Source: Elsinoe ampelina
Lineage: Eukaryota
Assembly (NCBI GenBank): GCA_010093995.1
Contig: ML992546.1
Location: forward strand, 1 to 36,985
DNA length: 36,985 bases
Direction: 5' to 3'
Shown here: positions 5,305-36,106 of the stretch, one piece after another
Layout: the number at the start of each line of letters is the position of its first letter
How positions within the stretch are numbered: the first letter of the stretch is position 1
Position numbers and translations under genes: made by a program
The notes under the pieces: generated by a model
The model's database searches: none
Seen by the model: only the letters and a program-made list of their open reading frames with translations
Told to the model about the DNA's origin: nothing

Positions 5305-5328
5305 TGATTCTGATTCTGATTCTGAATC
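5305..5328 (+). repeat. (TGATTC)n hexanucleotide microsatellite upstream of the RfeD-like gene
   Basis: Three perfect TGATTC units plus TGAATC. Confidence 0.7.
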
Positions 5329-8082: not shown

Positions 8083-10702
8083 TCACTGAAAAGTCCTACT
8101 CCTCCCCCCGCCCTCCTTCTGCCTCCTCCCCAACCCCTTCTTCACATCCCCCAGTCCCTTGGCCATGGTGAACGGCTCCCTCTTCTCCCTCGCCTTCCCA
8201 TCCTTGTCCTTCCCATCCTTACCCTTCCCCTTGCCCTTCCCGCCGTCGCGTTTCGCGGCGCGCTCCATCTCCCTCTGCGCGTGCAGCACAGTGGGGGCAG
8301 AGGCGTAGTCGAATTCCCCCTCCCCCTGTCCTTCCTCCCCGGCCCCTCCCCCGTCTTCTCCGACTCCAATGTCGTCGAGCTGCGTGCCCTGCTCCTCGAG
8401 AGCACGTTTCCGCCGCTTCTCCTCCTTGCGTTGGCGCTTGGCTTCGCGTTTCGCGTCGTCGGCCCGGACAGGCGTGATGGAGACTTCGTCTTGGTTGTCT
8501 GCTAGGCCGTCGTCGTCGTCTTCTTGACCGTTGAGGCCGGGAATTGCAGAGGTTGAGGGGGTGGACCGCTTGCGTTTCTCCCCTTTGTTTTGTTCGCGGA
8601 TGGTGAAAATGTCGGATTTGGCCTTGCCGGCTCGGGATAGGGGGGTGTTGTTGCCGTTGGTGGCGGGGGTAGAGACGGCAGATGCAGGGGCGGGTGAGGG
8701 CTTGTAGGGCGTTGAGGAGGGTGCGGTGAAGATTTCGGCTGTGAGGGGTGGGAGGGGGATGTGCATCCTTGGCTGCAGCGTGGATATACGCTTCTTCTGT
8801 TGTGTCGGAAAGGTATTACCCCAGAATGACGAGAGTGTCAAGCGTAAGGACGAGAGGGCGGTCTGGGGTGGTGCTAGGTTCTGAGCGGGACGTTGAAGAT
8901 CTACTCTTGGTGCTGTAGGGGCGTCTGCTGGTGGAGGAAGGGCAGGAGTCTGCCGAACGTCAATCATGGATTCGCCATAGCGAAAGATCTCAATCTCGCG
9001 AAGAGTGTCCTTCATTTCTGCTTCATTCGGGGCGCGATCCTTCGCCGCCTTGATCACGGCAAGAACTTCGTCGACATGGAGTCGAAGTATTTGCGTCACA
9101 GGTTGAGCAACGCTGAGTAGCTTCGCTCCTTCCAATGGTATTTCCTTGGCGATGTTGAAGAGAGTGTGATTGGCGAGCACGTAGTGTACGCTATCGTCTT
9201 GTTCGCGAGCTACCCGATCTCTCCATTCGTGGACTGCGCGGAACACAGCAAACTGTTCTCGTGACAGCAGCGCGGGTGTCCGCGCGAGCATGCGGTACCA
9301 ACCGACAGGACCAAGACCTCGCTCTACATCATAGATGGGATGGTTGTAAGTCTGCAGGGCGACCTCCTTGGACCTTTGGAGGACATCCATGATCTTGTCC
9401 TCTTCCGGCTTGCTTGGGTCCGAGCGATCCAACAATTCGTTTCGCATATTGTCGTAAATATACAGAAGAAAGTGCGTATCTGAGCGGGCATAGTCAAAGA
9501 GCTCCTTTGGTAAAGGTCGAATGCGCCAATCAGCCGTCTGATACTGCTTCTGTGCGTCAAAGTCGATGAATTTCTTGAGTAGAAACGCAAGACTACCGCC
9601 AGGATATCCTAGAACTCGAGACGCCAGGTGAGTGTCGAACAGACCAACTAGGTAAAGACCCAGATCACGTTGAAGCCAGATGGCATCCATGTGACCGCCG
9701 TGAAGGACCTTGACAATGTTCGGGTTGGCAAAGACCTCATTCAGAATGGAGAGTTTCCGTCGCCACGGCTTGAGTGTGTCCACTATCCAGTCGCGATCTC
9801 TCGTACTGATCTGCATAAGCGATACCAGACCAATGTATGTGCGGAAGTCGTGGTGTTCCAGATCAACGGCAATCTCCTTTGCCTGCTTCAGCTCTTGCAG
9901 CATCTCTTCCACTGCCTCTTCTGTGTCTACCAGTGTTGCTGTCGTAGATTCGAAAGGATGGTACATGATGGGTTCTGCTCGGGTATACACAAATGATGGA
10001 TATTCGTATTGCTCGATCTCGGTTTGATAGGGATGCGAGGTGCTGTGACTTTGTCAGTCTTGCTTCATAGAGCATAATCACTGTCGACTGACTGCTGTAA
10101 ACCGTCCTCACCCTCGTACTCTTGTGCCGACTCCTCTAATGGCACGATCGCATGCGGCTTCTCTTGTAGAAGAGGTCGAAACGGTGCAATATCGTCGTTG
10201 GAGGGTACAGTGTTGAAGGTCAGCTGCGGCTTAGTGATATCCTTTGACTTGAGAGCTTGCGCTATCTTGCTGGGTTTGGGTGTGCTCGTCGGAGTCTGCT
10301 CGCTGTCAGCTTAGGTCCCTCCTTCTTCTCCGAATCCCTTACCTGCTCCCTTGTGGGACTCAACCGCTTGACAGCACCCGAGAATTCATCCAAACTCGTG
10401 TCGGCCTTTTCAAGCAAACTGTCCAGGACATCAACTATGGCCTTCCAATTCTCGTCGACGGCATCGGCACCGGTCAGTCGAGGACGTACAACTTCCGAAC
10501 CCGGAGCCGCATTGCCCAGAAGGCGATCCGCAAGACTGAGAAGCCGCGCATTCTGCTGATCTATCCTTGAACCTATCGAGGGGTCGAGTGATCGATGAAA
10601 GTCGAGGTCTTCGGCGGCGAGAGCGTTTGCGCTGCGCGTCACTGCGAGCAATGAGGAGGATATTGACTCCAGCAGTGATGCTGAGTCTACATTAGTATCC
10701 AT
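8083..10702 (-). CDS. RRP6: Nuclear exosome 3'-5' exoribonuclease Rrp6; exons 10702-10343, 10295-10093, 10042-8083
   Basis: PMC2NT-like N-terminus (AEDLDFHRSLD...DVLDSLLEKAD), DEDDy motifs IAVDLEHH, LMQISTR, WLQRD, ADWRIRPLP and YARSDTHFLLYIYD, an HRDC domain (WRDRVAREQDDS) and a K/R-rich tail. Introns 10342-10296 (GTAAGG..GCTGAC..CAG) and 10092-10043 (GTCAGT..ACTGAC..CAG) keep frame. Confidence 0.96.
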
Positions 10703-10942
10703 ACTGCATGCATAGGCCGAATGAAGTGGAGAATAAATGTCGTCGTCGCGGTGGAGGTCATCTTGAGAACTTGAACTTTTTCATCATACCGCCAAGACTC
10801 CGCAAAGTCCGCATCACATGTCATCAAGACGTGAATATGAGAAGTGAAATGTTTTCTATACTACAATGATGGTATCTTATGCAGAGACTACTTCTGCCAT
10901 GTCGTGACGCCGTCGCTATGCTACAATGCTACCTCCGTCGTC

Positions 10943-13502: not shown

Positions 13503-14001
13503 CTTGAACGAGACCAGTCGGTCTAAAGATACCGTACGAATAGCGACAAGAGCGACAACCGAAACAAGAACTCCATCAGATCTGAAATTGTGGGTGGGTT
13601 GGTGAACTGTAAGTTGAAGAGATGAGTACAAGCCAGTTGTTCAAGCCACGCGAAGCTCCGCGCTTGCATGATGTCGTTTCTTGCCTGGTCTGGGGAATGG
13701 AGGGAAGGTCAAATGCGGCTCTGGTGCCACACCCGCGAAAACCCACGACCACCATTCTCCGAGTCTTTGTCACGCTGAACTCCTTCATCTGACATGCAGC
13801 TGACGGTCTTACCAAATTTTACAGACTCCCCGCCCTCCAAATCCTTGCTATTGTGGTAGGTCATGCATGGTAGACGTCAGGTGCGTCATCCATGCTACTG
13901 CCGAAGTGGCAATTTCTTTGACCTTTTTATTGTTCATGTGGCTATCCGTCAATACATCATCCTTGAGTATAGAATAAATAGCTCCTGCTCCGAAACACCG
14001 A

Positions 14002-18089: not shown

Positions 18090-18335
18090 AGCTGTTTACA
18101 GTCTACCATGTAACGATACGATGAAATCATACAGACAATATATTCATAATCTCTATATATCCCGTGTAATAAGTATGATCAATCCTCAAAGGCTTGACAT
18201 TCGTGGTCGCTGGTCCAGGCATGATATTTCTCTCGGCTAGCCTCGGCTTTGTGCCATTCCTCCCCCTTGCCTCAATATCAACTTCAACATCCACGAGTTT
18301 TACCTCGCACTCTTTCCACGTCCAGAACCATCACA

Positions 18336-19259
18336 ATGACCACCCTCCACCTCACCCGCACCACCCTCCGCCCCCTCCTCTCCCCCCGCACCCCCCCTCT
18401 CACCCGCACCTACAGCACCCCCACCCCTCCCTCCACCATCAAACTCCACTCCCTCCCCGCCCCCCACAGCGGCACCATCAAAATCCTCTCCCTCAACCGG
18501 CCCACCGCCCGCAACGCCATCTCCCGCCAACTCCTCTCCGACCTCTCCACAACCATCGAAGCCATCCACGCCGAACACGCCGACAACACGTCCGGGTCGA
18601 CGCGCGCGCTGATCCTCGCCTCCGAATCCGACGCTTGCTTCTGCGCCGGCGCCGACCTGAAAGAACGCCTGACCTTCACCCCGGAAGAAACGGGCCGGTT
18701 CCTGGGCGAGTTGCGCTCCACGTTCGCGCGGCTGGCGGCGTTGCCCGTCCCGACGATCGCCGCGGTGGCTTCGACGGCTTTTGGCGGCGGGTTGGAATTG
18801 GCCCTGTGTGCGCACCTCAGGGTGTTTGCTAGTACCGCCGTCGTGGGCCTGCCCGAGACGAGGTTGGCGATTATTCCTGGCGCGGGCGGCACGTATCGTC
18901 TGCCGAGATTGGTGGGGGAGGGGAGGGCGAGGGATATGATTGTCACGGGGAGGAGGGTGGGTGGGGCCGAGGCGTATTTTATGGGGTTGTGTGATCGGTT
19001 GGTGGAGGTCGGTGGGGAGCAGGTCAAGGAGGAAGGGGTCGCGAGGGGAAAGGTGTTGGATGTGGCGGTGCAGTTGGCGAAGGATATTTGTGAGGGAGGG
19101 CCGGTGGCGATCAAGGCTGCTTTAGAGGCGGTGGAGGGGTGGGAGGCGGGGGAGAAGAGTGAGAACGCGGCGTATGAGAAGGTTTTGGTCACGAGGGATC
19201 GGACGGAGGCGTTGAAGGCTTTTGGTGAGAAAAGAAAGCCTGTCTTTTTGGGTCGGTAA
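18336..19259 (+). CDS. Mitochondrial enoyl-CoA hydratase family protein, probably methylglutaconyl-CoA hydratase (AUH-like); intronless
   Basis: Arg/Thr/Leu-rich presequence; motifs LNRPTARNAIS, FCAGADLKER, GGGLELAL, GLPETRLAIIPGAGGTYRLPRLVG and DRTEALKAFGEKRKPVF. Confidence 0.92.
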   Translation: MTTLHLTRTTLRPLLSPRTPPLTRTYSTPTPPSTIKLHSLPAPHSGTIKILSLNRPTARNAISRQLLSDLSTTIEAIHAEHADNTSGSTRALILASESDACFCAGADLKERLTFTPEETGRFLGELRSTFARLAALPVPTIAAVASTAFGGGLELALCAHLRVFASTAVVGLPETRLAIIPGAGGTYRLPRLVGEGRARDMIVTGRRVGGAEAYFMGLCDRLVEVGGEQVKEEGVARGKVLDVAVQLAKDICEGGPVAIKAALEAVEGWEAGEKSENAAYEKVLVTRDRTEALKAFGEKRKPVFLGR

Positions 19260-19419
19260 AGCGAGGCAAAAGCAAATATATTGTACATAAGAAAAGACAT
19301 GGATGTAGAATTCTCTTCATTGCTCGCTCTTCTGCATCTGTCTCTGGCCTAGATCCGTTCTTCTTGCGGTACAACACACTACAGAGGCCCAGATCAGAGA
19401 CGCCAGCGAGGACCTCAAA

Positions 19420-19812
19420 ATGCTCCTCAACCACGTCTACACCACTGGCTTATTGGCCACGCTGGTCTCGCTGATCGCAGCTGGTCCCTCGTACCCCTAC
19501 ACAACCGTCACAGCCACGACAACGCACCCAACAGCACTCGCACCTTTCCCCTTCTCCACAGGCAAGCCAACTACCAGTAGCACTACCTTTCGGCCATATG
19601 AGGGAATCACTTCCGATTGCCTGATCATGCCGACTTTCAGCCCGGCAGATTCTTCCAATCTACTCTTCGGAGACGAGGAGACCAAGCAGATGGAGAGGAT
19701 GCGTGTTGCTCAGTCGCAGGCGCTCAGTCGACTGAGCGAGTTTCAGAAGGGTGGGAGGTGCAGCTTTGTCACCGTGACGAGGACGGCGACTATCGAGATG
19801 AAGGGGTTGTAG
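19420..19812 (+). CDS. Small putative secreted Ser/Thr-rich protein (130 aa)
   Basis: ATG in an AAAATG context, hydrophobic signal-like segment GLLATLVSLIAA, T/S/P-rich stretch and two Cys. No family recognised. Confidence 0.55.
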   Translation: MLLNHVYTTGLLATLVSLIAAGPSYPYTTVTATTTHPTALAPFPFSTGKPTTSSTTFRPYEGITSDCLIMPTFSPADSSNLLFGDEETKQMERMRVAQSQALSRLSEFQKGGRCSFVTVTRTATIEMKGL

Positions 19813-19984
19813 GCGCTATCAAGTGACGAAAGCGGATAGGATACCTAAGAACCATGCGAGGTCAAGGTTGTTCGTTCGTCAAAGCCCATGAGACTCTGAG
19901 GGAGGGGAAAGACACTGATTGTCAATGATTTTAGCGATGGCAAATAAGACCAGTATTGTATTGATCGCAGCGACATCTTCGAGA

Positions 19985-21112
19985 TCATCCCCTGCTCCGA
20001 GTCCAGAGATCGTTCTCCTTGACGTCTTCGTGGTTGTGATTCCATGGTAGTGCGCCACAACGTTGAGCCATCAGCTTCGTATCCTTCTCAGACAGATCCG
20101 GCAGCCGTCCACCATCAACCAGCAGCAGCGCAGGTGGTGCGACGGCTCGAGAGAGGCCTTCGAGAAAGGATTTAGCTTTCTGTTCGAATTGATCCGCAGG
20201 ATACCGTTTCTTTAGTTTCCGCTCCCTTGTGCGTGCTTGCCGAGAGGCATCCTTCATGCAATTCATAGCAAGAAGCTGATCCGGATGGTTAGTATCAAGC
20301 AGCCTGCGAGAGTGGATCTTATACCTCTTGGATTCGATGTTTACGAAGCTTTGGCCAGGTTTCTCCTTCAGTCTCGTCAACATTACCGCCCACCCACAGC
20401 ATTTCATACAACGCTTGTTCTTCAGCGTCACCATCAACGCCAGCGGGCGAGCCCCATAGAAAAGCTTCCCGCAACACAGCGGACCTGTCAAAAGCGTGTG
20501 GAACAGCTTGCAGCACTGCTTGTGTCATAAAGTCTCTGGCAAGGTCCATCCAAGGAGGGAGTGGGTCAGTATCAGTGATGAGCACCGAGAGAGACATGAA
20601 CATAGGCAGGATATCAAGCAGCAAGACCCGGGGTTGGCGAAGGATATTGGTGGTCGCTGTAGCAGGGTCGAATTGATTCAGGCCTTGACGTCCTTTGAGT
20701 CGCTCCAGTATCTCCCAAGGACGGACACGCGAAGCATTCTGTGATCTCAGTGCATAAAGTTCGTCGGTAGGCGGTGTCCTCACAGCAGGAGAGTGTCCAG
20801 CGTAAAACAAGGTGATGAGCTGGAGTACCCTGAGACGGAATTCGAGGTCTGGTAGATCGTCTGTAGTAGTATGCGTCTGATTGAAGATCTTTAAAAAGTC
20901 TCAAGAAAGTAAGAACCCGGTCGAGTACGATAGGAAGCTGCCTCACCGTTGACTTGGTGCAATGCCTTGTCTGCTTTCTGAATACTGCTCGGACGATCCG
21001 CAGACTCGTCTAGGATAGCACGAGTAGCATTGTAGACGAGATAGTCAATAATCATGGCATCCACCTCCAACTGCAGAGTCGGCTCTGCTCTTTTGAGATC
21101 AATGCCAGGCAT
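19985..21112 (-). CDS. Fungal hypothetical protein; exons 21112-20947, 20899-20325, 20275-19985
   Basis: Three ORF pieces are joined in frame by introns 20946-20900 (GTGAGG..CTTAC..GAG) and 20324-20276 (GTATAA..ACTAAC..CAG). Helical segments EVDAMIIDYL, LEFRLRVLQLITLF, LLDILPMFMSLS and WMDLARDFMTQAVL. Confidence 0.8.
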
Positions 21113-21596
21113 GTCGTAATCAACGACCTCTGTAGCGAGGTTTCCCTGGTCACGGAGGGAGGACGAATATTCGGTGCCGGTGCAGGATTGCTCTCGAGTA
21201 AGGGTACATGACAGCTCAAGCCGGAATAGTTCCTGACTGCTCTCTTGACTTGTCACTGAAAGAAAGATCACGCGTGGAAGGCTGCGGAGACGCGACAGTC
21301 AATTAAGGTTCCATGATGCGCGAAAACTGCCTATTTTGGACCACCCGAACCGACATCTGTGGCGGTGCAAGAAGGCAGCCACATTTTGAAGTGTGCAATC
21401 TTGCACATCACCTCCTCGAACACCTTCAATATATTTTACAGGTAGGCCCTGATCACTTCGTTCAAGGTCAGCGTCACTATTTGGGGAAGCTAGATAGTGC
21501 GCCACCATCACGTGCTCAAAGCAGATCTCGTTATTCATTTTCATTGCGACACTGTTCTTGATTCCAACTTTTCTTACAGCATCCATATTTCCGAGT

Positions 21597-23064
21597 ATGT
21601 CATCACTGCTTCAAAAGGTCAAATCTGCAGTCCACAGTGCGAATGATTGGGCTGAGTCGCATTCTTCACATCATCCCGGATATCGATCCGTCTGCTACTA
21701 TGTCAATTGGGCTATATATGGACGAAATCATCAACCGCAAGACCTACCAGCACATCTTCTAACCCACACATTGTACTCTTTCGCCAATGTGAAGCCAGAT
21801 GGCGAGGTTTACCTCACAGATACCTGGTCAGATATTGAGAAGCACTACCCATCCGACTCCTGGAACGATGTAGGCACCAATGTCTATGGTTGCTTCAAGC
21901 AGATGTATCTCCACAAGAAACGCAACCGAAACTTCAAGACTCTCCTCTCAATAGGGGGCTGGACTTACAGCGCGAACTTTGCCGCTCCCTGCTCAACGGA
22001 CGCCGGTCGTCGAAGGTTCGCTGAAAGCTCTGTTCAGCTCCTTAAAGACCTCGGTCTCGACGGCTTAGACATTGACTGGGAGTACCCAGCAGATGCCTCT
22101 CAAGCACAGCACTACACCCTCCTTCTCAAGACTATGCGAGAAGAACTCGACACCTACGCCGCCACTTTGCCTTCCAGACCACATTTCCTTCTCACTATAG
22201 CCTGCCCTGCGGGTGCACAGAACTATCAGAAGCTCGACATCCGAGGCATGGACCCTTACCTCGATTTCTGGAATCTCATGGCTTATGACTTTGCCGGCTC
22301 ATGGGACCAACAATCCGGCCACATGGCCAACATCTACCCCAGCAAAGACGCCCGCAGCACCCCTTTCGCCGCCGACCAAGCAGTGCGATACTACATCGAC
22401 TCCGGCGTCCGCCCCGCCAAGATCGTTCTCGGCCTGCCCCTCTACGGTCGCGCGTTCTGCGGCACCGACGGCCCAGGATGCGGCTACAATGGCATCGGCG
22501 AAGGCAGCTGGGAGAAAGGCGTGTGGGACTACAAGGTACATCCTCCCCTTCTTCGCCCCTCCCCACCCCCCCTCCTCCACGATGACACAAATAGAGCTGT
22601 GTAGAAGCCCCTTATGGTCCTACCTCAAGAACCTCCGCGGGCCTCGCTGAGCACACAACTTGATCTAATCTGACCCCCGCTCCTCCCTCCTCCTCCACCA
22701 TGCACCATCCCTCCTGCCATCCCAAGCTCACCCCATCCAGGCACTCCCCCTCCCCTCCTCAGAAGTCCACCACGACCCCGACGCTCTAGCATCATGGTGC
22801 TACCTCCCCTCGACCAAAACCATGGTTTCCTACGACACGCCGCAAAACGCCGCTGGCAAAGTGGAGTACATCAAGTCCCACCACCTGGGCGGCGCGATGT
22901 GGTGGGAGTCTTCGGGAGACAAAACAGGGGATGAGAGTTTGATTAACTTGACCGTGCAAGGGCTGGGTGGGTATGAGGGGGGGAGGATGGAGAGGGGGGA
23001 GAATTGTTTGGAGTATCCACATAGTAAGTATGATAATTTAAGGAAGGGGATGCCGGGGGAGTGA
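21597..23064 (+). CDS. GH18 chitinase (fungal subgroup A, no signal peptide); exons 21597-22535, 22741-23064
   Basis: Motifs [20 protein letters not shown], catalytic [28 protein letters not shown] across the intron 22536-22740 (GTACAT..GCTCAC..CAG) and [12 protein letters not shown]. Confidence 0.96.
22579..22673 (+). ncRNA. Candidate intronic box C/D snoRNA/scaRNA with an antisense element to U2 snRNA
   Basis: Box C-like ACGATGA at 22579-22585 and box D CTGA at 22670-22673. ACTTGATCTAA (22658-22668) is the exact reverse complement of fungal U2 UUAGAUCAAGU. It forms a 95-nt mixed-composition island within a poly-C intron about four times the usual length. Confidence 0.65.
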
Positions 23065-23214
23065 TGTGTCAGCTTGCGCCGGGGAGGATGGTGGGGTGGG
23101 GGTAATGTTCACAATGTATATAGCGAGATGTAATGGATGGAAAAGGCGTCATGGCCTGATTTTGTGAGGCTGTCTATGCCTATGCTAATTGTGTTGGTGT
23201 CCGGCCATTCCATC

Positions 23215-25691
23215 TCATGCTCCATTCGTCTGCACCCCATTCATCTGCGCTTGAGGAGCCTGCTGAGGCTGCGGCGTCGCACTGCTCGGTCGCGCAACCA
23301 TGTCTGCAGATTGCAGTGGCTTCATTGGGGAGCTGACCCTCGGTGGAGCTGGGGCGATGTTGCTGACCGGCGTAGATCGCCCGTTGGAACTTGGCCTTTG
23401 CTGGTTGTATGTTTGACCTTGATAGCCTTGCCCTTGCTGAGACTGCGAATTGTATGTATTTTGCCCATATGACATGGAATTGCGGAACTGGGTGTTGTTT
23501 TGGTAGGTCGCCTGCGTGTTGCCGTACTGATTAGGCCAGCGTTGCGCAGGCGGTTGAGGAGAGCCCTGATTAAGCTGCTGTCCATAGTTCTGACGCTGAT
23601 AGTATTGCTGGCCGGATTGAGAATAAGAGTTTGGCTGAAGCTGCTGATGTCTACTGACTGGCGCAGTCTGGGCACCAGCTTGAGAATATGACTGTCTGTT
23701 CGTCTGTGCAGATGGTGTAGCTGAGGCAAGATTCGACGATGGTCGGGCGTAGTTGGTGGGCAGCCGGTTGCCTTGATAAGACTGAGGTGTGACTGCTTGA
23801 CGGCTTCCGCTGATGGAAGAGGTTCGCGCAAATTGATTATAGCCTGCATTACTCGACGTCCGAGTCGCGGCGTTGGCGGCCGCAGCTTGTGTGGCTTTCG
23901 TCAGGCGAGTCAATTGGTCCTCTTCTAGGACACCACGGACGTTCTTGTTCTCCAGCAGTATAGTTGTGCTAACCCGGAGATCTTCAATCTGCTGGCCGTC
24001 CATCTTCGCCACAGTGTACGGTGGCAGTCGAGCGATGACTTCGGCCAAGCGCTCCTTCAATGCACGGTAGGTCTCGACTTCTTCTGGTGCAGGTTCGCTT
24101 GGCGTGCCGGTCACAGCGCTTCGCATAGGGCTCGGGCTCGATATTGAAGGTGTGCGCGCGTGTGATGCAATGGTGGAGTTGCGTATTCTTTGCTGCGATG
24201 CGAGCGTCTGCAGCAGGTCATTGATTTCGAGTAGGAGCTCTTGCGCTTCCATCTCTGCGGGCAACCGCTCTGACTCTGCATCAGGCACATCCGCGAGGCT
24301 GTCATCGTAATTCTCGATGACCTCCTCGAACATTTTCTTCTCATAGGCGGCGTTGAGCTTGACTGGATCTTCGTCGTCGGTAGCGTCCACCTCCATCTCA
24401 TCGTCAGGTTGCTGCAGAGCGAAGATTGAATCTAGCTTCCGCTTGCCGCCCCTTTGCCACCATACAAGGTTGCGAGAATTAGCTGAGATTACGGCTCGAC
24501 TGTGGTCATAGCTTGGGGCAAAGCTCGAGTATGCCGATGCAAACAGATCCTCTTCTCGTGGTACGGATGGCGTGAGATCCTGTGGTCGTTCTTTCTCGAC
24601 AATACTTCCGGGGCGATCCCTTGACTTGTCGCTTGACCTCTCTCTCTTTCGTGGTGCATTGCCATAACGAATCCAGTGACCGACATTCAGTGGTTGATAT
24701 GGGTAAGCCATCTTCTTCGCCACAGACCTGGGTATCCGTTTTTCTGTAGACATGAAAGTGATGGGGGGGTTCCTGCTTGATGGCTTGGGCTGCTTGGGCG
24801 GCGGCTGCAGTTCAGGTAGAGATGTTGGCGGAGGAAAGGCATCAGCAAAGGTCCGTGTCTTGGTCTTGATGGGCTCGTCTTGCGGCAGTGGGAGGAGCTT
24901 CGTGGCAGTGAGCATGGTGGGAAGACCAAGCTCTTCGAGGGATAGATCGGTGGCTGCATCGTCCTGCAGACTCGAGAAGAGCTGCTTCGGACCTTGGGCA
25001 TTACCGTAGAGCGAGAGCACTGTCCTGCCTGCTTCAGGTGCCGGATGAGTTGGCACAGATGCCTGCTCAGTCTTGACGCCATTGACCTTTGTAAACTGAC
25101 GAGACCTGCCCGGTCGTTCTCCCTTCAATTTGCTTTCTCGCACGACCAATTCCCTCACCGTGCTCTTCAAAGACATGTAGTCCTGTATCTGCGCCACATC
25201 CTCTTCTGACAGGCGTTTGAGCTTAATTGTCGAGCTCTCGTCTGGCTTCTTGATCTCGGCCACCTGGGCGTCGCATATCGACACGACATCTTGCTCGAGC
25301 TCATCCAGATGTGCATAGGTACTTTCGGCTACCTTCTCTGAAATGGTCTTCGACAATGCTGGCTCTGCAAGCTTCGCCTTTTTCGAAGGCTGTGGCTGGG
25401 AGCCGGCAGGGATAGGCGCATTGAGGATGGATGGGCCAACTTCGGACCTGGAGTATGTAAGCAGACATAGGGACTTGGATGTAGCGCGACTGACTGGTAT
25501 AGAATAGCTAGGATGTCCTCGAAAGTTTCCTTGCTGACAGCTCGTGAATCCTCAGGACGGTCTTGCGATATGTCCTTTTGCGCATCCGTGGTCTCGTGGT
25601 CCGTATCTGATCGCTTTCGCTTGGTTCCAGAGGTTGGCTCATCGATTGCTGCCTGTTTTTCTGGCGTCAAAAAGCCATTCTTGGTTGACAT
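23215..25691 (-). CDS. Nuclear protein, probable Rsc58/BRD7-BRD9-like SWI/SNF-family subunit with a Q/N/Y/S-rich tail; exons 25691-25495, 25447-23215
   Basis: Intron 25494-25448 (GTCAGT..GCTTAC..CAG) keeps frame. NLS-like KRKR, degenerate bromodomain-like KTISEKVAESTYAHLDELEQDV, LFSSL, SSFAPSYDHSRAVIS..VWW and a helical EINDLLQTLASQQRIR..LKERLAEVIARLPP block. The gene is solid; the family call is inference. Confidence 0.85.
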
Positions 25692-29258: not shown

Positions 29259-29439
29259 TGACTATACGCATGCACATAATTGATACATATTCAATCATAA
29301 GTTTTCATCTCAGCATCGCTCAGCGGTGTACTATCAGATACTATCAAGAATAACGAGCTGCATAGGTGCATGACGGCTGCGCTTCGAAAATATTGAGTAT
29401 TACACTTCCAGGACGTGATCCCTCACGGACTCCTGGTAA

Positions 29440-31580
29440 TCATCTATTATTCCTCGGCAAATGCCTCGGCCTCCAAACCCTCTCGCTCAATATCTCCCCA
29501 GCATTCCCTTCCTCCTGCCCACCCCTCACCTGTCTAACAGAAACATACGGCACGAACCCCTTCCCCTTCTTACCCTCACCCACGCCAGCCACCTCATCCT
29601 CCTCCTCATCCTCCTCGTCCAAATCCCAATCCGCTCCTTTCTCCTCCTCCACCACCCCGTGCTTGACCCTGTACTCCCTCCTATACACGTCCTCCAAAAT
29701 CGCCCAATCCGGGGAATCCAGCTTCCCCCTCACGAGGACCAGTCTGCCCTTCCCGCCCGGCGTCTTGCTCAGAGCGTAGTGGATCTCAGCCTCGGACACG
29801 GGGGTGACGAGGTGGATTTCCTTCTTGTCCGGGTCGATGCTGCGGACGAGGGCCTGGCCTATGCAGTGCGAGTGGGTGGGGTCGAGAGGCGGGGAGTTGC
29901 CCGAGGAGGAGGGGGGCAGGTAGGGCAGGGATACGGGGGCTGGAGTGGTGGGGTTGGTGGTTGGGGAGGAGGTGAAGGCGGCGGGGGAGGAGGCGATGAC
30001 TAGGGCGACGGGGAGGCCGGTGAGGACGTCTGGCAGGGCGGAGGGAGGGATGGTGGTGTGGTAGGATGTGATGGCGTGGATGAGCTGGTTCGTACCGGCG
30101 TAGGACAGATGGAGGGAGGGGATGGCGCTGAGGGGTTGGGATGTCCAGGTTTGCTGTCCTGAGGTGGGGTCAACCGTGTGCTGGTATGACATTGTCTGCA
30201 TGGCTCGTGCTTCTGCTGACGGTCTGGTAGTTGACGTGCGACCGCGGGAGGTGAGTACTTTGACCTTTGCTGATGCTGGGAAGCTCACGGGGTCGTTCTG
30301 GAAATCCGGCGATTCAAGCATGATCACGTCGGTGACGTTCAGAATCTTGGCTATTCGTTCGGAGAGAACTGCACCAGATCCAGTGATCCATCCAGGACAA
30401 TTGATGATCAACGTAGCGTCCTGGTTTCGACTCTTCATCTCGGCATATCGCTGGTACAAGTCGTTCACGCAAGCGATGTAATGGTCTTGGTCTTCTCTCG
30501 GGGACGTGGCGGCGATACTGTGGGCCCGTATTGTTCGGTAGGGAAGAGCGGGATGAGAGCGGGGGTGAGAGAATGACGGACCTAGCAGAAGCCCCCTTAC
30601 TTGAATCAAGGCGATTTGGCCTGGAGGGCTGAACTCGGGTTGTCCAGGATCCAAGTCCAGCCAGAAACATGTTCGCGATAACTCAGGCTGGGAGCTGGAG
30701 ACTATGGCATTTGACAGACAACGACAGAAGGTCGACTTGCCGGACGACTTGGACCCGGCCACTAGAGTACGTGACGAAACTTCACTGTGCGAAGATAATC
30801 GGTTGAGTGCCTTCTGAGCAACCTCGTCGAGATCGAGGGTGCTTGCTTGCAGGGACAGAACATCTGTTGGTGCATTCGAGGCCTAGAGAGTCAGTGATAT
30901 TAACGCCTAACCGTCGTGGGAGACCTACAATAGCAAATGTACAGTCCTCCCATTTGTGCCAGATACGGTTCCATAGAGAGCTCAATGCTTCTAGTTCCAA
31001 TAAGGCACAATCGACCGACCGAAATTCAATCTCGCTCTCATGCCTCGCTCGTATGGTGGGCAAGGCATGAGATAGGGGCGCACAAACTCTGTTAGCTGTC
31101 TCTGAAGATGTGATGTAGGCTCCGTATATGCTGACAGCACCCTTGGAGACTACCAGGTCAAACACGCCAGAAGCGCTGACCCACTCATTTGCTTCCAAAG
31201 TGAGTGTCGCAATGCCGTTCTTGAGCTTCAGTGCACGTTTGCCGTACGACGACAGAGGCACATCTGATGGAGCAACGCCGTTGGTTACTGTTGTGGGCAC
31301 TGCGTTGACCGTCTCCACGCTGTAGCCGAATGTCTCATGGCGTTCCAGGAGGGGTGGCTTGGACTCGATCACGTCGACGGCACCATCGGTGGCAACAAAC
31401 GTAGTGGTAGATGAGGTAGGATCTGTCGTGGATTCCGCGGCCGCTGGTCGACCAGCTCTAGCCTTTGCGAACGCGCTGATTGGTTCTGTTGAAGTAGGTC
31501 AGCGAAAGAATAAGTGGTACAGGACCATCATGTATGACCATACTTCCGGAAAACGCTTCGGCTGCAGATCTCTTGGGCAT
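29440..31580 (-). CDS. GRC3: Polynucleotide 5'-hydroxyl kinase Grc3/Nol9 (Clp1 family); exons 31580-31544, 31485-30929, 30882-29440
   Basis: Walker A GSKSSGKST, DLDPGQPEFSPPG, IINCPGWI and CIGQALVRSID..IHLVTP; N-terminal ISAFA motif. Introns 31543-31486 (GTATGG..GCTGAC..CAG) and 30928-30883 (GTAGGT..ACTGAC..TAG) keep frame. Confidence 0.93.
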
Positions 31581-31888
31581 GTCGAAGTCGCCTGGGGGGA
31601 AGACCTCAGTTTACTACCAGTATTTTGAGACCCTCGCGGATTCTGGTGGTACCACGATCAATTCTATAATCTCGAGCTGAAGAGAGGAATAGAACAGGCA
31701 TTTGAGCACCACATGTGGTAGTATATGGAACCTCACCTCCGCCGGAAATTTTGGGTGACCGCCCGGCAGAAAAAGTGTAGATGCACAACTCCACATGTGC
31801 TCAGCAACCCTTTCCATTCGTTCTACAGGTCGCTGCGCACAGTGGGACGACTGCTGGCGGTACCTGCACTGGATAGTCAAGCTCCAAG
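31581..31888. promoter_or_regulatory. Compact bidirectional promoter region between GRC3 and RPA34
   Basis: 308 bp between divergent ATGs. Palindrome ACCACATGTGGT at 31708-31719, a second CACATGTG at 31792-31799 and an RRPE-like GAAATTTT at 31745-31752. Confidence 0.55.
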
Positions 31889-33487
31889 ATGGTCAAGTCC
31901 AAGGACAAGGCCATTGCCAAGCGGAGCAAAGAGGCATCAATTACCAAGCCAGCGAGGATAACCAAAGCTCAATTGAGTCAGGAGCGGGTCGAAGATAGCG
32001 ACGAGGATAGCAGCAGCAGCGACGCCGCCGCCGACTCTGTCGCCAAACACATTGCCACCAAAGCCGCGAATGGAATCGATTCGGGCTTCTCGAGCAGGCC
32101 CGGATTGAAAGGTCCGCAGGTGTCTGGAGAAGAATCGAGCAGCTCTGACTCCGAGGCGGAGGCGGAGGAATCATCGGAAGCAGACTCGGAAGCAGGAAAG
32201 ACTGGAAAGAATAGTAAAATCACGAATGGACACGCCGGTCCAAAAGATGTTGGTTTGGACGAGGGCGAGAGCTCGTCCGAAGTGAGCAGCAGCAGTGAGG
32301 ACGAGATACCCACAGAGAAGAGTAGACCCGACGGAATACCAGGCTCAAAGACCCAGCCTAGAAATGCGCCTGCTCCAAGGTTCGTAGCACCGGCTGGCTA
32401 CACAAGAGTCGACGACTACGAGGCGAGTCCAAGCTTGAAGGCGTCGGATCTTGGTTCAAAGGAGCTATGGCACATCACCCTCCCAGCGGGACTACCGGTC
32501 TCGCAGCTGGCCAGCATCCCTTTAGCCGCCCTCAAAGATGGGCAGTCCGTCCTTTCACACAACGGCACGAATTATTCTGTAAGCGAAGATCCTCATTCCA
32601 GAAGTACGGGCGTGTCGAACAAGTATCTTCTCGTGCCAGATCCGAGTACAAAGAAATTCAGGAATCTGTCCATACCAGTATCGCGAACAATGCACATCAA
32701 GTCCAAGATTACTCTGCCCAGTCTGGCTGCCAGTCAAGCGGATGGCAAGAGTGGCTCAGCAGTCTCAGCGATCACGACATTCAAAACCATCGACAAGACG
32801 AGACCGCAGCCAATAGGTCTTAAGATGCGGTATAAGCCACCTGGATTCGGCGCAGGAAAGCCAGGAATGATTGGATCAGAGAGCTCGGACAACGAAGAAA
32901 GTGATGTCGAGATGGAAGATGCACCACCCGCTGCGCTGGAACCTACATTTAGACGACCAACTACCGCTACTTCTGCTGCGATAAAAGGATCGCCCGAGAA
33001 GGCCAGTTTGACACCGAACAAGAAACGTAAGCGCGACGCTCCGATACCTACAGAGAGGGAAGTCCCGGCTTCTAATCAGGAAACCCCATCGAAGGACAAG
33101 AAGACTAAGAAGCGGAAATCCGAGATCGCAGAAGCAAAGACAGGACCTCCTGTCGCCGCAAAGAGTACGAGTACTCCAGCAAAGTCGAGATCGAAACCAG
33201 CAGTAACGCCACTTAACAACGGCGTGAACGGGAAGCACAATTCTCCGGATGATGGCGAGGAGACTCCTGCATTACCGACCAAGAAGATCAACGACGATCT
33301 CGAGAGCACTCCAGCAAAGGCTCCGGCTTCTGACGACGAAGAGGAAGAAGCGACTTCACACAAGAAGTCACTATCGAAAGAGGAAAAGGCAGCGAAAAAG
33401 GCCCGCAAGGCCGAGCGAGCAAAGCAGCGAGAGGAGAAGGAGGCCAGACGGAAAAGGAAAGCCGAGCAGAAATCAGGCAAGACTTGA
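31889..33487 (+). CDS. RPA34: RNA polymerase I subunit RPA34.5 family protein
   Basis: Motifs FVAPAGY, KELWHITLPAGLPVSQL and RPQPIGLKMRYKPPGF, flanked by acidic Ser-rich and Lys-rich low-complexity regions. Single exon. Confidence 0.85.
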   Translation: MVKSKDKAIAKRSKEASITKPARITKAQLSQERVEDSDEDSSSSDAAADSVAKHIATKAANGIDSGFSSRPGLKGPQVSGEESSSSDSEAEAEESSEADSEAGKTGKNSKITNGHAGPKDVGLDEGESSSEVSSSSEDEIPTEKSRPDGIPGSKTQPRNAPAPRFVAPAGYTRVDDYEASPSLKASDLGSKELWHITLPAGLPVSQLASIPLAALKDGQSVLSHNGTNYSVSEDPHSRSTGVSNKYLLVPDPSTKKFRNLSIPVSRTMHIKSKITLPSLAASQADGKSGSAVSAITTFKTIDKTRPQPIGLKMRYKPPGFGAGKPGMIGSESSDNEESDVEMEDAPPAALEPTFRRPTTATSAAIKGSPEKASLTPNKKRKRDAPIPTEREVPASNQETPSKDKKTKKRKSEIAEAKTGPPVAAKSTSTPAKSRSKPAVTPLNNGVNGKHNSPDDGEETPALPTKKINDDLESTPAKAPASDDEEEEATSHKKSLSKEEKAAKKARKAERAKQREEKEARRKRKAEQKSGKT

Positions 33488-33544
33488 TAAGACCTCGTCA
33501 ATAACACTGAAATACCCAACAAGCCCCTGCATCTCCACTGTCCT

Positions 33545-35415
33545 TCAACGCTTCACAAACCTCACCTCGCCTCTCGTCGGATGCTTCACCTTGGGCGCCA
33601 AATCAAACGTCCCGTCCATAACCACATCCAACAACCTCCCCCTCGCCACCTCATCCCAATGTTGCCCCACCGTCCCCTCGAGCCCTTCGTACATCTTCGC
33701 TCCCACCTCGATGGTGTACTCGCTCAACAGGGAGAAGATAACGCTCACAAACTCCACCTGGCTGAACTTTTTGCCGGGACAGACGCGAGGACCGGCCACC
33801 CAGGCGATGAAAGACATGCCATCGGGTCCTGAGCCGTCCATGGTCTCTGTCGTGCCGTTGCGAGCGGTGGTGTGGATGGACGTGTCGCCTACTTTGCTGC
33901 TGTTTTTGATCTCGCTGGTAGGAGTGGACGCCACCCACCGCTTGGGTTTCCATAGGTGGGCGTCTTTACCCCAGACGGATTCGTCGAGGTGGATGGCGGG
34001 AAAGTTGATCGAGACGAGCGTATCAGGAGGGATGGAGAGTGTGCGGCCGGCGATGGTCAGGTTGCGGGATTGTGAGCCTGTGGTACGAGGGAGTTGTTGG
34101 GCGGATCCGATGAGGCGAAGGGTTTCGTACTGGGAGGTGTCAGCTTGTGAAGGTAGATGTGAGGCATGCGACTTACGAGGAGTGCCAGAGTGCGGACGAG
34201 CTTGGGGTACATCTCTGCGTAGTCGCCGCCTTCTGCCATGACAAGATCGACCTCCTCCCTTACCCAGGCTTGAATCTCTGGGTAGACAGCGAGCAGCGGT
34301 ATGGTGTACGCTAGTTGCGTGCTGGTGGTTTCGAAGCCGGCAAGGTTATACAGGAAGAAGTTCCCGTACAACTCGTCGTCACTAAGGACAAACTTGCCAC
34401 CGTCCTCCTTCTTGGCCAATTCATTCGCTCTGACCAAGCTCGCAGCCAACGTATCTCCCAGTCGGCTCTTGCCCTCTTTCTCCTCCCTCCTGAATGCCTC
34501 CCTTTCCTCCTCGATCCTCAGCTCCAAGTGCCTCTGAAATTCCCCCCTTGCAAGCTTCAACTTCCTCAACGAAGCAGGCAGCATCCATCCCGGCACCTTG
34601 ATAGCCGAGAACAAAATCGTCATCATCATGTTCCTCAGCAGATACTGCAGCGCCCCTCCATAACTCATCTCGAACCCTTCCTCCTTCTTATCCAACCCTT
34701 TTCCCCCAAAAGCGTACTCCCTCCCAAACCCCGCCGCCATGAGCACATGCATAGCCAACAGACTCACTCCCTCCCTCAACCTCTCCAGATCCACGTCCGT
34801 CCGTTCCTTCGCCCCTTGCCCATCCCCACCCTCCCCAAACCACCCCACCATCCCCCCAACCTGCCTCCTCCCCTCCCGCCACACAACCCCACAATTCCCC
34901 TTCCTGAACCCCACCGCCCCGACCTTCCGATGCCGCATCCACTCCGCCCCATTCACCGTGTTGACGTTCCGTCCGAAAACATCGAACAAAGCGTACACAT
35001 CCGCAGGCTTCTCCCACTCCCTCCACCCCTTGAGCACGTCCCTCACCGCCCCCGGGTCAGCGATGATGATCTCCAGCTTATGCGGCGAAACGATCGCCAT
35101 GGCCGGCCCCAGGGCGTCGTGGGCTTTGCGCCTGTCGAGGAACGGCCAGGCGAGCGGGGAGAAGTGGTACCATTTTCCTAGCAGGGAGAAGGGGTAAGGG
35201 AGGCGGGAGAGGGGGGTGAAGATGGGGGAGAGGAGGGGGTGGAGGAGGGGTTGGAGGGGGGATTGCCATGTTATTGGGGCGTGGATGAGGGGGAGGGAGA
35301 GGGCGAGGGCGAGGCGGTGGGTGTGGAGAAGGGAGAGGAGGGGAAGGAGGAGGGGAAGGAGGATAAGGAGGGGAAGTAGTGGTAGGAGGGTGGTGAGAGG
35401 AGGAAGGGAGGACAT
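33545..35415 (-). CDS. Cytochrome P450 monooxygenase; exons 35415-34177, 34129-33545
   Basis: N-terminal membrane anchor, WMRHRK (C-helix), AGFETT (I-helix), YETLR (ExxR) after intron 34176-34130 (GTAAGT..GCTGAC..CAG), PKRW and the haem motif WVAGPRVCPG. Confidence 0.95.
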
Positions 35416-36106
35416 GCTTGTCGAATGCGGGTTGATATGAATAGGAGGTAGTGCTTGGGTGGGAGATAAAGGAGTAGTGCAGAATTAGGACATGAAGGAT
35501 GCTAATGTGCGGTGTTGAGGTAATGGTATGAGAGGTCTCATCGGCGCGAGTGACAGGGTCGCCGTCGACACCGTGATTGTTGGCAGGTCATCTGGTTGAG
35601 GCGGGACGCCTGTCAGCATCACGTCCTTTTGTGTCAGCAATGCAACACGGCAGCCGCGAGGATAGCGTGCGAGACGGATCGGTATCTCCATACGTGGGCT
35701 CCCGGGTTCAAAGTCAACTCCAGTTGGAAGTATCACGCCCCATCTCGTGGCATCATGTGTTGCTACATGGAAGCATGGCACTGGGAATGTCGAATAGCTT
35801 AATATCGTCTGCGAGTCACGAATCGCAGCTACGCTCCTGTCCACAGTTTAGTGTAGCATCTCATCCTTATTGTTAGGTCAATAGCGGTTGTCAATCGAAC
35901 TTCGAGTCTTTGCAAGCAGACAAGGAGTTCTGATGGCAGACGAGAGTGCGGTGCTTTCGAGCCAATGCGGAGGTGAGAGACAGGGCTCAAATTGTCAACC
36001 GAGGCATAAGCTGGAGCGCCAAGAAGACCCTGATTCAGTTCATCCCAAGGTTGAACTGAACACTATCTCACTATTTCACTAATCCATGATCAAATTAGAT
36101 GATTAT

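Follow-up and report, generated by a model that had tools for sequence, protein, structure and literature searches.

Gene-anchored dyads of C-rich and G-rich strand skew in a window of the Elsinoe ampelina genome

The window, i.e. the whole 36,985-nt stretch that was analysed of DNA from Elsinoe ampelina, a plant-pathogenic fungus, contains five genes in which strand composition switches from C-rich to G-rich: RRP6 (protein with Pfam DNA_pol_A_exo1 and HRDC), a methylglutaconyl/enoyl-CoA hydratase gene (ECH; Pfam ECH_1), a GH18 chitinase gene (Pfam Glyco_hydro_18), GRC3 (Pfam CLP1_P, the protein having 100% identity with an NCBI entry under the name GRC3-type kinase) and a cytochrome P450 gene. 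Skew, (G-C)/(G+C), was followed in sliding 300-bp windows, and a step statistic, (G-C) in the 300 bp to the right minus (G-C) in the 300 bp to the left, was counted at values of at least 100. All six switches described in the initial annotation are present at their places, and a weaker seventh was added (Table 1).

Table 1. Skew units of the window, with skew in flanking 300-bp windows (+ strand) and distance of the unit edge from the stop codon.
Feature	Position	Arms or centre	Upward step	Skew, left then right	Host gene (strand; stop codon)	Edge vs stop (bp)
Unit 1	8055..8931	+ strand: C-rich 8055-8425, G-rich 8425-8931	150 at 8427	-0.46 (8101-8400), +0.45 (8551-8850)	RRP6 (minus; 8083-8085)	-30
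Unit 2	18262..19242	centre ~18682	168 at 18682	-0.69 (18301-18600), +0.67 (18901-19200)	ECH (plus; ATG 18336, stop 19257-19259)	-15
Unit 3 (weak, seventh)	19372..19902	centre ~19668	106 at 19668			-85
Unit 4	22080..23135	C-arm ~22080-22885, G-arm 22885-23135	182 at 22841	-0.43 (22501-22800), +0.39 (22951-23250)	GH18 (plus; 23062-23064)	+73
GH18 intron	22534..22738	205 nt, within unit 4 C-arm			GH18 (plus)	
Unit 5	29454..30285	centre ~29758	226 at 29770	-0.64 (29401-29700), +0.63 (29851-30150)	GRC3 (minus; 29440-29442)	+12
Unit 6	33531..34200	centre ~33758-33823	127 at 33823	-0.40 (33451-33750), +0.39 (33901-34200)	P450 (minus; 33545-33547)	-16
Unit 7	34415..35556	most of first P450 exon	252 at 35111	-0.72 (34651-34950), +0.76 (35251-35550)	P450 (minus; ATG 35415)	

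The units are 0.5-1.1 kb long, with a local G+C of 58-68% against 52.9% for the whole window. Units 1 and 5 fill the last ~850 bp of RRP6 and the last ~830 bp of GRC3, respectively, the sense strand of RRP6 being C-rich upstream and then G-rich as far as the stop, while unit 2 spans the entire hydratase gene. Unit 3 sits in the 726-bp gap that separates the stop of the hydratase gene (19259) from that of a converging minus-strand gene (19985-19987), and overlaps an unannotated plus-strand ORF (19309-19812). Unit 4 lies in the 3' part of the chitinase gene (a threshold method places its edges at 22566-23135) and includes an intron with GT..AG ends, whose joint (22533/22739) is found in RNA contigs of all four runs. 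The P450 gene carries two units. Unit 6 covers its second and last exon, although by the threshold method the right arm stops short, at 33878; the intron lies at ~34130-34176 (joint 34129/34177 in RNA contigs). The sense strand of unit 7 is C-rich from ~140 bp upstream of the ATG to ~35100 and then G-rich to ~34415, and this is the sole unit without an end at a stop codon.

The seven upward steps (values 106-252) compare with a standard deviation of 51.5 for the step statistic over the whole window. Eight downward steps also reach at least 100, the largest being 156; apart from one at 5333, they are the outer boundaries of these units. The switches, which it had called sharp, are transition zones ~100-250 bp wide rather than points. 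Skew is back to zero ~0.3-0.6 kb from each centre, and the seven centres lie within 27 kb at a spacing of 1-10 kb, two of them 1.3 kb apart inside one gene. The window holds 14 G-quadruplex-type motifs; 13 of them fall inside arms, in every case on the outward strand.

An amino-acid effect does not explain the skew. Synonymous-codon shuffling, with 1000 shuffles per gene and both protein and codon usage kept, gave a third-position upward step below the observed one in 1000/1000 cases for RRP6, ECH, GH18, GRC3 and P450, i.e. five of the ten genes tested; for P450, the up-step (+88) and the down-step (-56) each lay beyond all 1000 shuffles. The step was not exceptional in HRD1 (reached by 594 of 1000 shuffles), GH32 (142), DUF7785 (875) and RPA34 (895), in agreement with the initial annotation, which had listed HRD1 and other genes as lacking the pattern, and a gene of 1033 aa was marginal (24 of 1000). 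No feature predicting which of the ten tested genes carry a significant unit was found. Pooled four-fold sites are 64% C and 10% G in C-arms (n=512), 60% G and 19% C in G-arms (n=324), and 31% C and 23% G elsewhere (n=2294). C occupies 91% of pyrimidine two-fold sites in C-arms, 39% in G-arms and 58% elsewhere; G occupies 37, 88 and 62% of purine two-fold sites, respectively. The extreme is the hydratase gene, in which four-fold sites (A/C/G/T) go from 0/31/0/2 in codons 1-40 to 1/0/15/2 in codons 241-280, a swing from 94% C to 83% G inside 921 bp. The hydratase step is partly protein-encoded, with a G excess of +25 to +55 at codon positions 1+2 of the C-terminal part in 11/11 fungal orthologue loci and an upward step of at least 100 inside the gene in 8 of the 11, and in RRP6 and GRC3 the protein sequence encoded by the arms changes from Pro/Ser/Thr-rich to Gly/Glu/Lys-rich. 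Nevertheless, amino-acid composition or ordinary codon usage alone, whose probability we regard as negligible, is ruled out as the sole cause by the shuffles and by the silent and intron sites; on this check, proposed in the initial annotation, the skew persists.

Skew peaks at the four-fold and two-fold silent sites and continues through the RNA-confirmed GH18 intron (A40 C96 G27 T42, with C at 47% and G at 13%, compared with 29 and 21%, respectively, in the other seven introns pooled), as the initial annotation had noted for codons and an intron. It had also recognized the dyad symmetry, which extends to A and T: at two-fold sites the A/T component flips as well, independently of how the arms are defined, so that C-arms with 91% C and 63% A face G-arms with 88% G and 61% T. 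The mirror is approximate, G making up 10% of four-fold sites in C-arms and its counterpart C 19% in G-arms. Arms that are roughly reverse-complement images, A/T included, are what a single strand-asymmetric process at the DNA level would leave if it worked on opposite strands. Four-fold sites consist almost wholly of C or of G, not of C+A or G+T mixtures, and hence an additional GC-raising force or a transversion bias is needed.

The units are gene-anchored compositional units and not free-standing foci. An edge lies within 60 bp of a stop codon in four of seven units (random placement P=0.0017) and within 100 bp in six of seven (0/20,000 random placements; P<0.0001), and two C-arms start upstream of the ATG, by 74 bp in ECH and 141 bp in P450. 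The G-arm shows no decay with distance and is at full strength as far as the stop, where it ends; beyond the stop codon, skew is absent from the next 100 nt in two of five cases (ECH and GRC3), an unexpected result if the mutation bias were purely transcription-wide, unless the skew is offset by the converging neighbour. All five strong 3' units lie at converging gene pairs with stops 58-726 bp apart; single RNA contigs bridge two such pairs and reach the neighbour's coding end in two more. The independence from gene orientation asserted in the initial annotation is not inferable, since a C-then-G dyad reads alike on either strand; for the same reason, the sense strand of every host gene is C-rich upstream and G-rich downstream.

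Such anchoring would also be expected from selection on the transcript or on transcription, be it C-avoidance at 3' ends tuning RNA polymerase II speed, an adaptive idea raised in the extract of PMC3315797, or RNA structure or R-loop-assisted termination between packed converging genes. The G-rich 3' arms at closely spaced converging genes recall the terminal GC skew described for human genes in the extract of PMC3787257. The skewed GH18 intron counts against selection on mature mRNA or translation, yet it fits selection on pre-mRNA or at the level of transcription. The rough reverse-complement symmetry of the arms, two-fold choices included, is unexpected from one RNA strand, and C-avoidance does not predict the A-avoidance of G-arms. 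Moreover, the predicted hydratase mRNA fold (-434.9 kcal/mol) is no more stable than shuffled versions (-432.5 +/- 9.5 kcal/mol, z=-0.25; 8/20 shuffles at least as stable), and a unit is found in only about half of the tested genes. Selection of this kind is in our estimation rather unlikely.

Replication origins in bacteria, mammalian skew domains and yeast show an upward (G-C)/(G+C) jump with mirror symmetry, and the units share both traits, including the direction of the jump, with G+T excess on the outward, leading-type strand as at bacterial and mammalian origins. Bidirectional forks leaving each centre could then have built the jumps through replication-linked asymmetry, as the initial annotation had suggested. 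The fit is poor: the units are of kilobase-or-less scale, their skew dies ~0.5 kb out instead of extending replicon-wide, seven centres share 27 kb, and these are GC-rich coding DNA with edges tied to stop codons. No motif shared by the seven centres beyond GC-matched controls was found, a check proposed in the initial annotation. We consider origins very improbable.

The other proposal of the initial annotation, hotspots of double-strand breaks or recombination fixed at the unit centres, gained no positive support and is about as doubtful as selection. Outward repair synthesis with G:T mispairs, or biased T:G heteroduplex repair, would make outward strands G+T-rich and raise G+C. The polarity fits synthesis errors on a newly made outward strand, as deduced from break-repair geometry, the local G+C is indeed raised, and the arms, ~0.3-0.6 kb long, are comparable in size to repair tracts. 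In yeast and in cancer, a break resected in both directions leaves strand-switching mutation clusters that likewise change strand in mirror image at a point. These clusters are single events, whereas the units are a fixed compositional state; and damage to single-stranded 3' overhangs would probably give G+T to the left and C+A to the right, the reverse of the window. A break-centred tract does not predict edges at stop codons far above chance, nor a G-arm of full strength to the stop. The bias is not plain AT-to-GC either, purine two-fold sites being 63% A in C-arms against 38% elsewhere, and the lack of a centre motif also speaks against hotspots. In Zymoseptoria tritici, another Dothideomycete, 1435 of 2578 recombination hotspots lie in exons according to the extract of PMC5844332, so that intragenic hotspots have a precedent; the same extract describes GC-biased conversion as extremely weak or absent in Zymoseptoria, against this explanation.

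Related fungal contigs carry weaker versions of the pattern. In the last 60 codons, third-position G exceeds C in 8 of the 12 long ORFs of the window (three negative, one zero). In nine related fungal metagenome loci this holds for 19 of 26 long ORFs (four negative, three zero), several of which have strongly C-rich codons farther upstream. Hydratase orthologues in related loci go in the same direction, more weakly, though distinctly in locus L006. A lineage trend is visible in the skew difference implied by the hydratase protein, which amounts to 0.36 here and 0.38 in Myriangium duriaei, the mean of 119 homologues being 0.10 (SD 0.08). Polarised replacements lead away from G in the C-arm, with five from G and none to G, and towards G in the G-arm, where ten are to G and four from G, five from C and one to C.

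The units are an extreme, locally compacted form of the known fungal sense-strand skew (5' C, 3' G), not a sign of origins. Their cause is most likely, by a modest balance of probability, a strand-asymmetric DNA-level substitution bias tied to the transcription unit. The strand-asymmetric foci of the initial annotation are retained as regards DNA-level asymmetry, which the near-mirror arms fit, and abandoned as regards free-standing position. On the host sense strand, each unit begins with its C(+A)-rich arm and finishes with its G(+T)-rich arm; the G-rich arm usually ends at the gene 3' end, and the C-rich arm starts at the 5' end in two cases (hydratase and first P450 exon). The main change would be A-to-G, accompanied at a lower level by C-to-T, on the strand running 5'-to-3' away from the centre, that is, the non-template (sense) strand in the 3' arm and the opposite strand in the upstream arm. 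The flip would have a plausible reason if sense transcripts exposed the sense strand near the 3' end, for instance through pausing or R-loops, and if the converging neighbour, by antisense or read-through transcription, exposed the opposite strand deeper in the gene; a displaced strand rich in G could then favour its own further enrichment. R-loops and antisense RNA enter as putative participants, and we infer the link to transcription solely from the anchoring to gene ends. Against this preferred explanation, a strand flip within a gene calls for a particular cause if the bias is transcription-coupled, and a significant unit was observed in only about half of the tested genes (5/10).

Transcription-associated asymmetry in vertebrates consists of an A-to-G excess on the non-transcribed strand, whose sign is constant along the transcript. 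The G-arm agrees with it in sign, showing a sense-strand G+T excess as would arise from non-template A-to-G and C-to-T changes; the E. ampelina skew, unlike that of vertebrates, changes sign upstream of the centre and is much larger. Human closely spaced genes, as described in the extract of Ginno et al. 2013 (PMC3787257), have a terminal G-skew with R-loops at their 3' ends, and they share with the units a G-rich sense strand, packed gene 3' ends and sequence prone to R-loops and G-quadruplexes. E. ampelina differs by its paired C-rich upstream arm, of which that extract makes no mention for human genes, by organism and by scale, and is known here from sequence. The closest counterpart is fungal. 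In the extract of McLean and Tirosh 2011 (PMC3315797), whose species list comprises filamentous fungi and two Dothideomycetes, the sense strand of most fungi tested is C-biased at the 5' end and G-biased at the 3' end, at four-fold sites and into UTRs and promoters, with a shift in amino-acid usage, as in the units. The statement of the initial annotation that a transcription-coupled bias would not flip mid-gene is at odds with this published change of sign along genes. The skew reported there appears as a modest average over all genes and leaves AT skew flat. The E. ampelina pattern is instead locus-specific and near saturation, in dyad units 0.5-1.1 kb long, with A/T choice at silent sites flipping as well. 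It also departs from that description in that units often take up no more than the final ~850 bp of a long gene, the first two thirds of RRP6 and GRC3 being unskewed, four-fold sites included, so that a C-rich 5' end does not fit these genes, and in that one gene may hold two units.

All six switches from C-rich to G-rich DNA reported in the initial annotation are present where it had placed them: in 300-bp windows the skew of the + strand runs at -0.40 to -0.72 and then at +0.39 to +0.76, and G+C around the switches amounts to 58-68% compared with 52.9% for the window overall. With the step defined as G-C in the right 300 bp minus the same quantity in the left 300 bp, the whole window contains seven upward steps of at least 100, namely the six switches and a weaker one at 19668. 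Each marks the centre of a unit composed of a C-rich arm (C-arm) and a G-rich arm (G-arm), hosted by the 3' part of RRP6 (unit 1), the hydratase ECH (2), the chitinase gene GH18 (4), GRC3 (5) and a cytochrome P450 gene (6 and 7), unit 3 being the weak one. Unit edges were set by a fixed threshold rule; the maxima of the cumulative skew overshoot into weak tails. The transition zones between the arms are ~100-250 bp wide, and the skew is back to about zero 0.3-0.6 kb from every centre. The same statistic gives eight downward steps of at least 100 in the window, with a maximum of 156 as against 252 for the upward steps, and these are the outer edges of the units plus one step at 5333. The downward step at 19283 is a converging junction, and that at 5333 lies just ahead of a plus-strand gene whose 5' region is C-rich. 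The resulting sawtooth runs upward inside genes and downward between genes.

Among the large downward steps, only that at 5333 does not coincide with an edge of a unit. It lies in a region (4350-6450) of ~0.9 kb of G-rich DNA followed by ~1.2 kb of C-rich DNA of 58-64% G+C, which leads into a plus-strand gene at 5947-7370 with a RING-like zinc finger at its end. This arrangement would fit the C-rich 5' regions of diverging transcripts; ORF and Pfam searches identified no minus-strand gene at 4400-5300.

The dyads are not true inverted repeats or hairpin DNA. Their arms match only as low-complexity C-rich versus G-rich strings of 14-41 nt (70-93%), most of them out of register, and form no palindrome. 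The search for a common motif at the centres, suggested in the initial annotation, yielded none: the best 6-, 7- and 8-mers are common to 6, 4 and 3 of the 7 centres, while 200 GC-matched control sets gave means of 5.85, 4.77 and 3.77, hence no k-mer in excess of the controls.

The window is one complete contig, and the gene names proposed initially were borne out by Pfam (table). In homology searches the GRC3 product is 100% identical to a protein recorded for Elsinoe ampelina, and proteins of E. batatas, E. fawcettii and E. australis also came up. The nearest named relatives of the hydratase in a homology search belong to Elsinoe fawcettii, Sphaceloma murrayae and Myriangium duriaei (71-76% identity), which places the source fungus among the Dothideomycetes, order Myriangiales. 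RNA evidence came from unstranded contigs of four public runs, in which strand, starts and ends are not resolvable and uncovered parts carry no weight. Besides the two introns listed, six further short stretches with GT..AG or CT..AC ends are skipped by RNA contigs and were read as introns. RNA contigs of several runs break off inside arms (18380, 22700, 29592-29623 and 35226-35260) and carry on in sequence that differs but is likewise C-rich or G-rich, which suggests that many similar low-complexity stretches elsewhere in the transcriptome confuse the assembler. An unannotated plus-strand ORF (19309-19812), located between the converging hydratase gene and a minus-strand gene, coincides with weak unit 3 (19372-19902); read from its internal Met, its product starts with a hydrophobic stretch resembling a signal peptide, and it has no Pfam match.

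Genes and introns of the window, with the evidence for each
Feature	Position	Strand	Evidence
RRP6		minus	Pfam exonuclease + HRDC
HRD1, synoviolin-type RING ligase		minus	Pfam
GH32 gene			Pfam
Enoyl/methylglutaconyl-CoA hydratase (ECH)	18336-19256	plus	Pfam
GH18 chitinase		plus	Pfam
DUF7785 gene		minus	Pfam
1033-aa gene		plus	no Pfam domain match
GRC3		minus	Pfam CLP1_P
RPA34		plus	Pfam
Cytochrome P450		minus	Pfam
GH18 intron	22534-22738		skipped by RNA contigs, GT..AG or CT..AC ends
P450 intron	about 34130-34176		skipped by RNA contigs, GT..AG or CT..AC ends

The switches had been described as independent of gene orientation. This cannot be concluded from their direction, since a C-then-G dyad is its own reverse complement and any host gene therefore reads C-rich and then G-rich on its sense strand, as is the case in all seven units (C-biased upstream, G-biased towards the stop). 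The edges tie the units to genes. A unit edge lies -30, -15, +12 and -16 bp from the host's own stop codon in RRP6, ECH, GRC3 and P450, respectively, +73 bp in GH18 and -85 bp in weak unit 3. An edge falls no more than 60 bp from a stop codon in four of the seven units (random placement, P=0.0017) and no more than 100 bp from one in six, a figure reached by none of 20,000 random placements; the cruder rule based on cumulative-skew maxima likewise brings 4/7 edges within 60 bp. G-arms keep their strength up to the stop codon and then end. C-arms start 74 bp upstream of the ATG in the hydratase gene and 141 bp upstream of it in the first P450 exon, and the 100 nt preceding the ATG are C-rich in both cases (C39/G12 and C39/G8). 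Past the stop codon, the next 100 nt are G-rich in three of five cases (GH18, RRP6 and P450) and unskewed in the other two (ECH and GRC3). More generally, third-position G exceeds third-position C (G3>C3) in the last 60 codons of 8 of the 12 long ORFs of the window.

The five strong 3' units are all found at converging gene pairs, whose stops are 58-726 bp apart, and none at the three tandem 3' ends, a contrast too small for a test. The 3' ends of converging genes overlap or lie directly next to each other (19206-19259, 23031-23064, 29259-29439 and 33488-33544). Single RNA contigs span the 1033-aa gene together with GRC3, and likewise RPA34 together with P450, while contigs of a minus-strand gene and of the DUF7785 gene reach into the coding ends of the hydratase gene and GH18, respectively. 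Furthermore, 13 of the 14 G-quadruplex-type motifs of the window reside in arms, on the outward strand.

With edges tied to stop codons and centres devoid of a common motif, the gene-independent origins or hotspots initially proposed are not supported. Replication origins at the unit centres should generate a skew that persists across the replicon, whereas here it fades within a few hundred base pairs, and their positions should follow origin elements rather than stop codons, near which all but one of the units have an edge. Both the short range and the density of the units speak against origins.

The skew does not vanish at synonymous and non-coding sites, the first outcome that the initial annotation had named as refuting its reading. 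In the hydratase gene, four-fold sites (A/C/G/T) count 0/31/0/2 in codons 1-40 and 1/0/15/2 in codons 241-280. When six units are pooled, four-fold sites of the sense strand are 64% C and 10% G in C-arms and 60% G and 19% C in G-arms, compared with 31% C and 23% G outside arms in ten genes. Synonymous codons were shuffled within each gene, thereby keeping protein and codon usage: the third-position step was matched by 0/1000 shuffles each in RRP6, ECH, GH18, GRC3 and P450, and was often reached in HRD1, GH32, DUF7785 and RPA34. The 1033-aa gene is marginal, with 24/1000 shuffles reaching its step, located 81 codons from the stop. Hence, half of the ten genes tested in the window contain a significant unit. 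Within a C-arm, the 205-nt GH18 intron consists of 47% C and 13% G, compared with 29% and 21% in the seven other introns. Four-fold sites, synonymous shuffles and this intron together rule out amino-acid composition as the sole cause.

Two-fold codons reveal a further component. Pyrimidine codons end in C at 91% in C-arms, 39% in G-arms and 58% elsewhere (T: 9%, 61% and 42%), and purine codons end in G at 37%, 88% and 62%, respectively (A: 63%, 12% and 38%). On the sense strand, the upstream arm thus favours C and A, and the downstream arm G and T. Since arms were defined by G versus C, the A/T flip is independent of their definition. The two arms are near reverse complements at two-fold sites, 91% C and 63% A in one facing 88% G and 61% T in the other, and the mirror symmetry is approximate, as four-fold sites also show (64/15/11/10 vs 60/15/6/19). 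From this symmetry we infer a single DNA-level process acting on opposite strands in the two arms. The core of the initial proposal, a strand-asymmetric process that flips at a point, survives in this form. A further GC-raising or transversion component is needed because four-fold sites are nearly all C or G and because the window-specific replacements include C-to-G and G-to-C changes.

The same data bear on two other explanations. Break or recombination hotspots at the centres, coupled with GC-biased gene conversion, should impose a strand-symmetric AT-to-GC bias. This is absent: G+C is raised, yet purine sites move to A in C-arms and pyrimidine sites to T in G-arms. Hotspots also fit less well with units anchored to stop codons and transcript starts, with abruptly ending G-arms and with motif-free centres, and damaged 3' overhangs at a resected break would leave the opposite polarity. 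Selection on RNA is weakened as an explanation by the mirror symmetry of the arms and by the lack of extra folding stability in the hydratase transcript, which folds no better than shuffled sequences (z=-0.25); an RNA panhandle was rejected on the same result.

Does the pattern extend to related fungi? Metagenome contigs scanned with the hydratase alignment yielded 11 loci, presumably fungal, with orthologues 51-72% identical, two pairs of which look duplicate. An upward step of at least 100 occurs inside the orthologue in 8 of the 11. Codon positions 1 and 2 of the C-terminal part have a G excess of +25 to +55 in all 11 loci, compared with +68 in the window, and the step in the orthologues is thus partly protein-encoded. 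Their four-fold and two-fold sites point in the same direction, more weakly. The silent-site C-to-G switch is clear in locus L006, a distant fungal contig (1437-2576; hydratase 53% identical), where a sharp downward step (-180) directly follows the hydratase stop, as expected of a converging junction. In nine such loci, G3 exceeds C3 over the last 60 codons of 19 out of 26 long ORFs, falls below it in 4 and equals it in 3; six of the 26 have, besides a G-rich end, strongly C-rich codons lying 180-300 codons upstream. Of the other genes of the window, the only ones with orthologues in these loci are RRP6, in L006, and DUF7785 and the 1033-aa gene, both in L002, another of the metagenome loci; the RRP6 tail cannot be aligned, and L006 lacks a step of at least 100 there.

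At the protein level, the skew contrast implied by the hydratase (0.36) borders the range seen in 119 homologues (mean 0.10, SD 0.08), and the Myriangium duriaei protein is alike (0.38). Window-specific hydratase replacements lose G in the C-arm and gain it in the G-arm. Polarised replacements in GRC3 follow the same trend modestly (C-arm, 11 to C and 5 from C; G-arm, 4 to G and 2 from G), and in alignment the Elsinoe batatas GRC3 protein has the same Pro/Ser/Thr-rich and then Gly/Glu-rich stretches. The skew reshapes proteins into such stretches, an effect that matters for fast-evolving regions and for codon-based tests of selection in these plant pathogens.

Strain differences amount to 0-2 other letters per contig piece overlapping a unit, an unpolarised count from contigs that drop variants. 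Where a minus-strand gene and GH18 diverge, the stretch that includes their promoters (19461-22533) is a patch in which contigs of other runs differ strongly from the window, with 18 other letters in 414 bp at 20325-20738 (run X4) and 31 in 1066 bp at 21468-22533 (run X7), compared with 0-2 per 0.4-2.7 kb in pieces outside it. The contig ends in an AT-rich block (36050-36985; 29% G+C) with TpA/ApT of 1.82 and (CpA+TpG)/(ApC+GpT) of 0.36, vs 0.59 and 1.29 in the rest, the usual signature of repeat-induced point mutation.

The composition of the arms would be explained by a main A-to-G change, with a weaker C-to-T change, on the strand running 5'-to-3' away from the centre. This polarity, in which the outward strand gains G and T, could arise in more than one way: deamination-type changes on the non-template strand of transcripts that would in effect diverge from the centre, errors on strands newly made outward from a break or an origin, or biased T:G repair. 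The anchoring to gene ends (stop codons and transcript starts), the abrupt G-arm ends, the lack of a centre motif and the non-symmetric AT/GC behaviour lead us to prefer a process coupled to the transcription unit to break hotspots. Nevertheless, a plain transcription-linked bias leaves the strand switch ~300-500 bp before the stop without explanation. A tentative and rather improbable solution is that each unit is the footprint of two opposed termination zones with runaway R-loops. Sense transcripts would form R-loops, with G-quadruplexes, in the 3' arm, and antisense or read-through transcripts from the converging neighbour would do so in the upstream arm; the displaced strand of each arm would gain A-to-G and C-to-T changes, become more G-rich and further stabilize the R-loop, a self-reinforcing runaway that could bring silent sites close to saturation. 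Two such zones facing each other would account for the strand switch. If true, this fungus would expose the long-unexplained cause of fungal intragenic GC skew at single-locus resolution. Silent sites are almost fully converted, and the discrete units have measurable centres and edges, so that rival causes (transcription-linked damage, antisense RNA, break repair and selection on transcription) make distinct local predictions.

The literature searched contains no paper describing such units in Elsinoe, and neither it nor the papers citing the 2011 study of fungal skew offer an explanation for the fungal pattern. In that study, by McLean and Tirosh (PMC3315797), the sign change of GC skew along genes emerges weakly, from averaging thousands of genes: most fungi examined, in a list with filamentous species and two Dothideomycetes, have a coding strand biased to C at the 5' end and to G at the 3' end. 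There, the skew is present at four-fold sites, reaches into UTRs and affects amino-acid usage, and its cause is left between position-dependent mutation pressure and selection for C-avoidance. In human genes, Ginno et al. (PMC3787257) connect R-loops and termination with G-skew where closely spaced genes end, and the window similarly has positive sense-strand skew at the 3' ends of closely spaced genes. The window shares with the fungal pattern of the 2011 study its direction, its silent-site signal and its effect on amino acids. Unlike that average, it reaches a nearly saturated amplitude at single loci, the skew is packed into dyad units (0.5-1.1 kb) that occupy only the last ~850 bp of long genes, one gene holds two units, and the A/T component flips with the arms, whereas AT skew is described as flat along genes in the 2011 study. 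The pattern of the window is an extreme and new variant of a known, mechanistically open fungal pattern.
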